From: Escherichia coli O157:H7
GTDB taxonomy: Bacteria; Pseudomonadota; Gammaproteobacteria; Enterobacterales; Enterobacteriaceae
Length of the DNA stretch: 64,000 nucleotides
Strand: one strand, 5' to 3'
Assembly (NCBI RefSeq): GCF_013167455.1
Contig: NZ_CP038328.1
In this document: piece after piece, positions 7,716 through 10,104 of the stretch
Layout: the number at the start of each line of letters is the position of its first letter
How positions within the stretch are numbered: the first letter of the stretch is position 1
Made by a program: the position numbers and the translations under genes
The notes under the pieces: generated by a model
Told to the model about the DNA's origin: nothing
Databases searched by the model: none
The model's input: the letters and a program-made list of their open reading frames with translations, nothing else

Positions 7716-8378
7716 TCAAACAAAACCAGCCGCCTTCCGGCGCTCGTATTCCTGTTTCAGTAATTCAATTGGCGTTGGCCCTTGCGGGCACTTCGGCGAT
7801 GCGAGTTGTCTCCGGATCGGGGGAATACTCATCCCGTTACCAACTTGCTTTGCCCATTTCGTCAGTTGCCGTTCTGCAAGTCGTTTTAACTCACCTTCCG
7901 TCATCTGCCGCTCAATCCCTCTGTCACGCATCTCGAGGCAAATGTGGTACAGCACCGGCTGTGGCCACGGGTATTTATCACTCCCGTCGTACCGCCAGGA
8001 TTCATTCCTCCAGCGACGGTACTCCTCCATCACGGCATCCACCGTCAGGCCAAATGGATTTGCCCCGCTCTCCGAAATCAACGCCACAAACTCAGCCAGG
8101 TCCGGAGGCCACGTTTCACCCGCCCGGCAGCGGTCCATGCACTGACGGCAGACCTGCCGGATTTGCTGTTCAGTCATCGCGCCAATCTGAGCAATCCAGA
8201 GCTTCGACGGCGCAGCCCCGTTCTTCTGGGTCCAGCGGTTCGAATACACCTCCCCCATAAGTTCCCACAGCTTCCAGGCCGTTTCCGTTGCTGATAAATC
8301 CGTTTTCACGTTCCCACTGTTCACGTGCTGCCCGAATTTCCTGAACTGCCCGTGATGCGGTGCCACCTGGTGCTGCAT
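7716..8378 (-). CDS. Replication protein P-like (lambda P family helicase loader); start uncertain (8378, 8258 or 8177)
   Basis: Aligns by eye to recalled lambda P: ETWPPDLAEFVALI vs PFLPSPGQFVAWC; YPWPQPVLYHICLEMRDRG vs YPWKSNAHYWLVTNLYQNMR; TEGELKRLAERQL vs TDAELRRKAADEL. Confidence 0.6.
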   Translation of the reverse strand: MQHQVAPHHGQFRKFGQHVNSGNVKTDLSATETAWKLWELMGEVYSNRWTQKNGAAPSKLWIAQIGAMTEQQIRQVCRQCMDRCRAGETWPPDLAEFVALISESGANPFGLTVDAVMEEYRRWRNESWRYDGSDKYPWPQPVLYHICLEMRDRGIERQMTEGELKRLAERQLTKWAKQVGNGMSIPPIRRQLASPKCPQGPTPIELLKQEYERRKAAGFV

Positions 8379-9213
8379 GGCTTACCCCCTTGCTGACTGG
8401 TTTTACCTGTGCCCTGACGTGCTGCACGTGACGGGCAAATTTCTGCTCCCACTGAACCTGCGTGAAAACCTTCCCCTCCGCCATCCAGTAATCCCGGAAT
8501 GCGGCAAGCTCAGCAGGTGTAAACTCAGGCTCAGGCAGAGCCATACCCCACAATGCAGCCCGCTGTCGAAAATCCAGCGACGGCCGCCAGACACCAGTCA
8601 TCGGAAATTTCCCGATCGGTTCGCTCAGGCCATCCGGGTATTCAGGTTCTGCTGTCTGCAACGGCGCGCCATTCGACTCACTGGCTGGAGCACTCTCGCG
8701 CATGCGCGCGTTATGTGTGGGGTTTAATTCTTTATCTGTATCTGTATCTGTCGTGACTTGTCGTGACATATGCGTGACGCGTCGTGACTCATCGTGACAA
8801 TCAGTGTTCTGCTCCCGCAGTCTTTCCCGCTCCCGCTGCGCTCTCTTGCGCTCTGCCGGGGATTTTGCGGTTTGCGAAACATTACCGTTATCCTCCTTCA
8901 TCACCTGGCGTTTTTCCCATCCGGAAATAAGATCGCCATCCAGAACTCGCCCCTGCATTGCATGCAAAATTGAATCAATCACGTCTTCCGTCACATCAAG
9001 CGCACTTGCTAAATCTTCCGTCGTGACATCAATGTGACCACGTAGTGACTCGCCGTGACATTTCGTGACATTTCGTGACGCACTCACCAGAAGGTGGATA
9101 TACACCGCCATCACTGTTGCGATTGGCTGTCCTGAGACCCTGGCAATGGTTCGCCATTTGGGATCATTTGGCATGTCATGCCACAATCTGAGCCAGGCAT
9201 TAGCCATACTCAC
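8170..9213 (-). CDS. Replication initiator / replisome organizer (O-like; DnaT-like C-terminal region)
   Basis: 347 aa; N-terminal WLRLWHDMPNDPKWRTIARVSGQP...ISGWEKRQ resembles the phage replisome-organizer N-domain; contains two iteron clusters. Confidence 0.6.
   Translation of the reverse strand: MSMANAWLRLWHDMPNDPKWRTIARVSGQPIATVMAVYIHLLVSASRNVTKCHGESLRGHIDVTTEDLASALDVTEDVIDSILHAMQGRVLDGDLISGWEKRQVMKEDNGNVSQTAKSPAERKRAQRERERLREQNTDCHDESRRVTHMSRQVTTDTDTDKELNPTHNARMRESAPASESNGAPLQTAEPEYPDGLSEPIGKFPMTGVWRPSLDFRQRAALWGMALPEPEFTPAELAAFRDYWMAEGKVFTQVQWEQKFARHVQHVRAQVKPVSKGVSHAAPGGTASRAVQEIRAAREQWERENGFISNGNGLEAVGTYGGGVFEPLDPEERGCAVEALDCSDWRDD
8751..8797. repeat. Iteron cluster A: 5 copies of (T)CGTGAC, preceded by TCTGTA repeats (putative origin inside O-like gene)
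   Basis: TCGTGACttgTCGTGACatatgCGTGACgcgTCGTGACtcaTCGTGAC read directly. Confidence 0.6.
9019..9080. repeat. Iteron cluster B: 6 GTGAC-containing repeats
   Basis: TCGTGACatcaaTGTGACcacgtaGTGACtcgcCGTGACatttCGTGACatttCGTGAC read directly. Confidence 0.55.
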
Positions 9214-10008: not shown

Positions 10009-10038
10009 CGAATGAACTCCAAAAAACACACAATAATA

Positions 10039-10104
10039 TTAGGCTTAGCCTAATGCAATTGTCAATAGGCTATGCCTAACGCTTCGAGAGTAGGTATTGC
10101 CTAA
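10039..10104. promoter_or_regulatory. Right operator region: three TTAGGC-N3-GCCTAA-type dyads between divergent cro-like and repressor genes
   Basis: TTAGGCttaGCCTAA (10039-10053), ATAGGCtatGCCTAA (10065-10079), TAGGTattGCCTAA (10090-10104). Confidence 0.6.

Follow-up and report, generated by a model that had tools for sequence, protein, structure and literature searches.

Where does a lambdoid prophage begin to replicate when its initiator has no detectable sequence similarity to lambda O, and what are two clusters of one short DNA word doing inside that initiator's own gene? The question is raised by a 64 kb stretch of Escherichia coli O157:H7 (64,000 nucleotides of RefSeq assembly GCF_013167455.1, contig NZ_CP038328.1; hereafter the window, meaning the whole stretch), which is 100% identical to E. 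coli O157:H7 chromosomes and in which both clusters fall within the early region of a lambdoid prophage that has inserted next to potC, described as the 'potC' prophage (PMC10925052). An original prediction, made from the letters alone, held that the repeats inside the initiator gene are the prophage origin on the plan of lambda, and comparison of related sequences supports that core idea: the two GTCACG arrays and an adjoining AT-rich tract are, I will argue, most likely the replication origin, carried inside the gene of the protein that would use it. The elements concerned are these, by window position:

9022..9079, minus strand: iteron array 1, promoter-proximal, six direct GTCAC(G) copies spaced 10, 10, 10, 11 and 11 bp, coding for amino acids (aa) 43-62
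8752..8798, minus strand: iteron array 2, promoter-distal and the proposed core origin, five direct GTCACG copies spaced 10, 10, 11 and 10 bp, coding for aa 137-153
8990..8995, plus strand: single inverted iteron copy, GTCACA on the plus strand and TGTGAC on the gene strand, ~30 bp downstream of array 1
8723..8751, minus strand: AT-rich, purine-biased tract, a proposed DNA-unwinding element, ACAGATACAGATACAGATAAAGAATTAAA on the gene strand, directly after array 2
8170..9207, minus strand: gene of the replication initiator, 345 aa when started at the ATG at 9207 (the mechanical open reading frame, ORF, runs from a GTG at 9213)

The five (T)CGTGAC copies predicted at 8751-8797 and the six GTGAC-containing repeats at 9019-9080 are indeed there on reading the sequence, both within the minus-strand gene 8170-9207 and thus within initiator coding sequence. 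On the plus strand, GTGAC starts at 8753, 8763, 8774, 8784 and 8794 in array 2 and at 9023, 9034, 9045, 9055, 9065 and 9075 in array 1, giving 11 copies that are all direct and on a single strand, nine of them with the core CGTGAC (GTCACG on the gene strand), recurring once per helical turn (10-11 bp) on either side of a gap of about 230 bp. Some details of the prediction need amending: the unit is not 7 bp but 10-11 bp with a conserved core of 6-7 bp, best described as a 6-bp core, and since the gene is on the minus strand, what was called the first cluster (8751-8797) is the promoter-distal one, so that the TCTGTA repeats said to precede it exist but follow it in the direction of transcription. 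Tandem Repeats Finder reports these as TCTGTA x3.8 at 8729-8751, along with period-10 arrays at 8749-8798 and 9054-9079.

Nowhere else in the 64 kb do at least three GTGAC or GTCAC fall within 70 nt, and among the 5-mers of the window GTGAC ranks first for clustering. In 100 Markov-1 simulated windows the maximum was two copies per 70 nt (91 cases) or three (9 cases), against the five and six observed, and shuffles and simulations together rule out chance clustering. The expectation that a pattern search would find the repeat confined to this place is borne out for the clusters, which are unique in the window, but not for TCGTGAC itself, of whose 15 occurrences seven lie within 8751-9079 and eight elsewhere.

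Is it then the DNA or the protein that is being kept? A period of 10-11 bp is not a multiple of three, so GTCACG falls in all three frames (read as S-R, V-T and (C/G)-H) and the arrays are not amino-acid repeats. A synonymous-site test was made on 26 representatives (<90% identical) of the four-copy GTCACG clade, using the third positions of conserved, degenerate codons: the major nucleotide reaches a frequency of 0.995 on average within iterons (8 sites) and 0.549 outside them (34 sites; Mann-Whitney p = 1.3e-5), which with the three-frame reading rules out an amino-acid repeat or codon effect. Structure in the mRNA was ruled out as well, the RNA of either array folding no better than shuffled controls (z = +1.2 and -0.7). 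Together these three results place the selection on the DNA word itself.

The family to which the gene belongs makes the same point on a larger scale. Homologous gene starts were collected from phage records and viral contigs (195 loci, reduced to 109 distinct sequences), and an unsupervised de novo search took from each of the 109 the 5-mer with most copies at 9-12 bp spacing. An identical word occupies both arrays in 101 of these 109 gene starts, from E. coli, Pseudomonas, Aeromonas, Ralstonia and uncultured phages, with array 1 covering roughly nt 129-181 of the gene and array 2 roughly nt 380-460; the 101 homologues with both arrays have 3-6 copies in array 1 and 3-8 in array 2, and across the family neighbouring copies within an array are 10 bp apart in 192 cases and 11 bp apart in 65. 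Phages of E. coli, Pseudomonas and Aeromonas, whose proteins are 53-100% identical to that of the window, use GTCACG as their word, the Hennie/Firinga clade of Ralstonia phages uses GCAACG, the ct2G2228 clade has CGAACGC, and still other clades have TGACG or AACGC; the arrangement holds even where protein identity is down to 31-45% and the word is another one. Even the inverted copy switches in step: most relatives of the GTCACG clade have CGTGAC at nt 193, and Hennie has CGTTGC, which is GCAACG inverted, at nt 195. One word within a genome and another word in another protein clade is the classical signature of co-evolution between an initiator and its sites, and phage Evi, in its complete genome of 40 kb, has the arrays nowhere but in the initiator gene.

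Two further features of the family deserve mention. In some clades an array 1 iteron is fused to an inverted copy to form a 10-bp palindrome (GTCACGTGAC at gene nt 149-158 in a Pseudomonas clade, loci L003 and L125-L132; GCAACGTTGC at gene nt 161-170 in a Ralstonia clade, L085/L092), a fusion that the window lacks, having only the isolated copy at 8990-8995. Distances between the arrays vary across the family in ~10 bp steps (R = 0.72-0.81), which is suggestive of face-of-helix pairing; since units come and go at the array edges and the loci share ancestry, this phasing is confounded and is not relied on as evidence.

Iterons alone do not make an origin of the lambda type, and it is what adjoins array 2 that completes the picture. 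The GC content is 0.35 at 8720-8759 versus about 0.55-0.65 in the flanks, and in 105 relatives the 40 nt past array 2 are 67% AT and 71% purine, compared with 46% and 54% for the gene body. Among 50 representatives below 90% identity, the GC content of third codon positions (GC3) is 0.18 in the 12 codons past array 2 and 0.64 in the first 100 codons, a drop in the same direction in all 50 (Wilcoxon p = 3.8e-10), and the use of AT-ending codons exactly here, even in GC-rich phages, is as expected for an unwinding element. The tract is present after array 2 in all clades. Nearly all of the 105 relatives, whatever their iteron word, also have 6-nt periodic hexamers of GATAAA/GATACA or GAGAAG type at this place (the equivalent tract of loci L001-L194), a periodicity that could mean sequence-specific recognition, possibly of one strand.

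The protein encoded around these elements is best introduced by its predicted domains:

aa 1-~100: predicted winged helix
aa 117-138: basic helix
aa 139-175: disordered linker
aa ~192-269: DnaT-like domain binding single-stranded DNA (ssDNA)

Its sole Pfam match is the DnaT ssDNA-binding domain (aa 203-269, E = 1e-16), with no Pfam family for the DNA-binding part, and its C-terminal region matches positions 80-156 of NCBIfam NF002770 (DnaT) at 91.8 bits, where the curated cut-off is 201, which means that the initiator is no orthologue of DnaT. In PHROGs it falls in 'replication initiation protein' families, with weak matches to 10469 'DnaD-like helicase loader' (E = 2.4e-8) and 4880 'replisome organizer' (E = 3e-4), and NCBI gives fragments of it the name 'phage replisome organizer'. 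Phage_rep_org_N (PF09681) has no significant Pfam match in the window protein and is reached by one of 34 family members at E = 0.044, and no Pfam Rep family (plasmid RepA WH1-WH2) is matched. The 'O-like' label that the prediction gave it is apt by position and by partner gene and fails by sequence, homology to lambda O being rejected by BLASTP (E = 3.3) and by the lack of a match to Pfam Phage_rep_O.

An AlphaFold model of aa 1-175 from a 34-sequence alignment (mean predicted local distance difference test score, pLDDT, of 75, and >90 in the helical core) places helices at 16-25, 29-45, 63-70 and 74-84, with a loop (46-62) between the second and the third, then short beta strands at ~85-95, the basic helix at 117-138 and a disordered tail; aa 1-~100 are thus modelled as one winged helix, with a fold that may resemble the N-terminal domain (NTD) of DnaD. 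Array 1 codes for the last part of helix 2 and for the loop that leads into the helix-turn-helix, while array 2 and the AT tract code for the disordered linker, with pLDDT <50 over the array 2 stretch. The loop tolerates insertions and deletions, the six copies in the window protein versus four elsewhere amounting to a 21 bp, 7-residue insertion, and its residues vary with the iteron word (SRNVTRGH, TQCNADATRGN, NASANATERG, NVTHGDARVTRGD). By lying in a loop and a linker, the arrays sit where the protein best tolerates a dictated sequence.

A last line of evidence comes from recombination, since these genes are assembled from parts. The C-terminal half of the window gene (8170 to ~8749) has 86-93% DNA identity with genes of two other N-terminal types, namely DUF1376/YdaU of Rac-type prophages and an unrelated helix-turn-helix (HTH) type (loci L195, L196, L197), and the identity breaks at ~8749, the very boundary of the iterons and the AT tract. 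Immediately upstream of the shared TTAAACCCCACACATAAC, every N-terminal type carries a set of repeats of its own. Conversely, the N-terminal module with both arrays is joined to other C-termini and other helicase/loader genes in phage Evi and in Pseudomonas, Aeromonas and Ralstonia phages. Swaps in both directions indicate that the unit that sets specificity (N-domain and iterons) can be exchanged separately from the unit that recruits the helicase (C-domain and loader), much as lambdoid O genes do. Upstream of the junction the repeats of the YdaU type read TGTTCAAACA...TGTTTGAACA and those of the HTH type AAAGACACCCAAA twice and GGAACCCAAAG twice, and they may be the origins of those modules, including oriJ of Rac.

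The setting of the gene adds three more features:

10036..10065, minus strand: sigma-70-like promoter, TTGACA-18-TAATAT, from a consensus scan only, upstream of the operon of cro-like, cII/YdaT-like, initiator and P genes
7716..8378, minus strand: lambda-P-like helicase loader gene, a long ORF of 220 aa (RefSeq has 7716-8177, 153 aa, 'replication protein P')
8697..8708: perfect 12-bp GC palindrome CGCGCATGCGCG, 15 bp past the AT-rich tract and part of the shared C-terminal module

The minus-strand order is thus promoter, cro-like HTH gene, cII/YdaT-like gene, initiator and loader, with a RacR-type repressor gene divergent from the operon, and the promoter, as read from sequence, would drive transcription across both arrays. 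No partition genes are found in the gene content around the arrays. The loader ORF matches PHROG 109 'P-like helicase loader' (E = 1.7e-63, aa 18-219) and is a distant homologue of lambda P (BLASTP E = 6e-7). From its ATG at 8378 it overlaps the last ~209 nt of the initiator gene (8170-8378) in another frame; both frames are open in four diverged relatives, with substitutions that are mostly silent in the P frame and alter the initiator tail, and this pattern, together with a PHROG match from aa 18 of the long ORF, puts the real P start probably upstream of RefSeq's 8177. In lambda, too, a palindrome lies on the right-hand side of the AT-rich region; among three relatives, the Rac-SA53 ydaU gene has a diverged, imperfect CGCGCGTGCGCG at the position of the palindrome and the other two are more degenerate. 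A DnaA-box-like TATATCCAC (gene strand; complement GTGGATATA at 9095-9103 on the plus strand) lies 15 bp upstream of array 1 with 7/9 matches to TTATCCACA; it is kept in E. coli relatives and not in the Pseudomonas relative, may only reflect the codons for VYIH, and was dropped as a DnaA box candidate for that partial match and that lack of conservation.

How might such an origin work? On derepression the early promoter would transcribe the cro-like, cII/YdaT-like, initiator and P-like genes, passing through the origin. The winged-helix N-domain of the initiator would then bind the 6-bp GTCACG cores, five sites in array 2 and six plus one inverted in array 1, and direct repeats once per helical turn would line up the initiators head to tail on one face of the DNA. 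Their oligomerisation would distort the DNA and may bridge the arrays ~230 bp apart, the distortion would melt the AT-rich, purine-biased tract beside array 2 (array 1 helping or controlling, an auxiliary to the putative core origin), and the DnaT-like C-domain would hold the single strand while the P-like loader brings in the DnaB of the host.

Several points weigh against reading the locus as an origin of this kind. Binding of the initiator to the arrays is something I infer from co-variation only; the AT tract is short (~29 bp, minimum GC 0.35) and far less extreme than many unwinding elements; and array 1 is not clear in the distant homologues ctOK67, Cy-LDV1 and MACPNOA1, which have array 2 only, while Mwe-JY25 is without clear repeats in either array, exceptions by which array 1 is not universal. 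The prophage may also be defective, in which case its origin may not fire in this strain.

A more elaborate version of the origin can be imagined, one that joins a truly bipartite pairing loop, a sequence-specific single-strand hexamer element and co-evolution of protein and site in the same nucleotides, and I regard the whole combination as possible but rather doubtful. Under it, initiator filaments would pair across the ~230 bp with helical phase preserved, closing a small loop that would drive melting of the tract, or else license or limit firing, which would amount to plasmid-style iteron control within a phage gene. The GATAAA/GATACA tract may then be held single-stranded by the initiator, by analogy with DnaA-trios or with Rep on a strand of the plasmid unwinding element, and since array 1 codes for the loop of the domain that would read it, a DNA-binding protein and its site would be co-evolving in the same nucleotides through at least four specificity switches.

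Next comes the thought that the initiator does bind the arrays and that one or both are mainly control sites, serving autoregulation, a block to transcription, titration of initiator or 'handcuffing' of one array to the other, with replication possibly starting elsewhere. 'Handcuffing' is how second iteron arrays act in plasmids P1, F and R6K, and here too are two separated arrays, one alone beside an AT-rich tract, with the path of early transcription crossing both and with ~10 bp steps between arrays that are compatible with pairing on a face of the helix. I nevertheless consider this unlikely, given that array 2 has the full classical signature of iterons followed by a selected AT-rich tract, placed as in lambda O, that no further cluster of the word is found in the window or in phage Evi, and that the phasing is open to the confounding already described. 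More improbable by far is that the repeats are sites for another protein, such as a host factor or one for partition (a centromere) or packaging, and have nothing to do with the initiator. Direct repeats of 10-11 bp in two blocks do typify plasmid centromeres such as R1 parC, but the word here follows the clade of the initiator N-domain while hosts and the remaining phage genes differ, the arrays travel with the N-terminal module when C-termini are exchanged, and the neighbourhood is free of partition genes. Least credible of all, repeats without any function at the DNA level (slippage, coding or codon constraint, mRNA structure) would suit a copy number that varies as in slippage-prone repeats (4 or 6 in array 1, 3-8 in array 2) and can be dismissed on the three-frame reading, on synonymous sites that are near invariant against ~55% conservation elsewhere, on a layout that outlasts the change of word at 31-45% protein identity and on the RNA folding.

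An origin inside the initiator gene thus remains my preferred reading, and its reach would go well beyond one prophage. The initiator type occurs in 1260 of 5426 complete E. coli genomes, O157:H7 prophages included, with at least 80% of the gene in 657, and it is also found in temperate phages of Pseudomonas, Aeromonas, Ralstonia and cyanobacteria. A literature search found no paper with GTCACGAAATGTCACG or its complement and no described origin, most subscription journals being outside its coverage so that an earlier description is possible; papers on Rac oriJ, the Pf-5 prophage, Francisella KIRK and cyanophage Cr-LKS3 do not describe this origin. In a plasmid database the initiator is matched mostly by prophages carried on large replicons. 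Two records from clinical P. aeruginosa, CP137943.1 and CP124671.1 (locus L200), entered as circular 'plasmids' of 50.9 kb, are complete temperate-phage genomes that have this initiator and lack any typed plasmid replicon; they are probably circular forms of the phage that were captured and submitted as plasmids. The plasmid-database matches offer weak backing for autonomous replication.

A known origin would allow ori plasmids and incompatibility tools to be made for these prophages, the iteron word would predict which co-resident prophages compete for or share initiators, and origins throughout this initiator family could be annotated from sequence alone. The family is also a natural experiment in specificity switching, with at least four words on the same architecture and the sites written in the initiator's own codons. 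Even if it should prove ordinary, this would be a textbook-style origin that current annotation has missed.

How ordinary it is can be judged against known systems, of which lambda is the closest in plan. In both, the origin (putative here) lies inside the initiator ORF, where a linker separates the DNA-binding N-terminal part from the C-terminal part that has to do with the loader, an iteron array gives way downstream to an AT-rich tract with a purine-rich coding strand, a P-type loader gene comes immediately downstream, and the element is part of an early transcript of rightward type; the lambda record has four annotated iterons at O nt 349-433 and then ACACAAAAGACACTATTACAAAAGAAAAAAGAAAAGATTATT on the coding strand. 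The likeness extends to copy number, since in Shiga toxin (Stx) phages six versus four iterons add amino acids to O (PMC7466680), just as six versus four array 1 copies add 7 residues here. The differences are as instructive: the initiator is unrelated to O and has a DnaT-like C-terminal domain, the palindromic sites of 18-19 bp, each for an initiator dimer, that lambda has at about 20-24 bp in a single array are replaced by direct 6-bp cores at 10-11 bp, and there are two arrays ~230 bp apart, one of them within the coding region of the DNA-binding domain, plus an isolated inverted copy.

Phage SPP1 offers a second precedent, its oriL in gene 38 consisting of short boxes bound by the organizer G38P beside an AT-rich unwinding element (PMC5737612). 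Here too repeated boxes and an AT-rich element are embedded in the initiator's gene, the initiator is without an AAA+ domain, and there are weak PHROG matches to replisome-organizer and DnaD-like proteins and a predicted fold that may resemble the DnaD NTD. The Pfam family Phage_rep_org_N, however, is not significantly matched, the loader and helicase partners differ, and the second G38P-binding region of SPP1, oriR, is far off in the genome, whereas the second array here is ~230 bp away in the same gene.

Plasmids P1 (oriR/incA), F (oriS/incC) and R6K are those in which a second array controls initiation by pairing or looping. They share with this locus two direct-repeat arrays for one initiator at or near the rep gene, one beside an AT-rich opening region, and differ in having intergenic iterons of 17-22 bp, as opposed to a 6-bp core in coding sequence, and Rep proteins of the WH1-WH2 RepA family, as opposed to one predicted winged helix with a DnaT-like domain. 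E. coli DnaT (primosomal protein I) resembles the initiator in the ssDNA-binding domain at aa 192-269 and lacks the origin-specific N-terminal domain.

By analogy, then, the locus would function on the design of oriλ and SPP1 oriL, with the sites of an initiator and an unwinding element inside the initiator's gene, and what sets it apart from both is the presence of two arrays per gene, a 6-bp core at one-turn spacing, an array written in the codons of the DNA-binding domain and at least four words on a constant scaffold.

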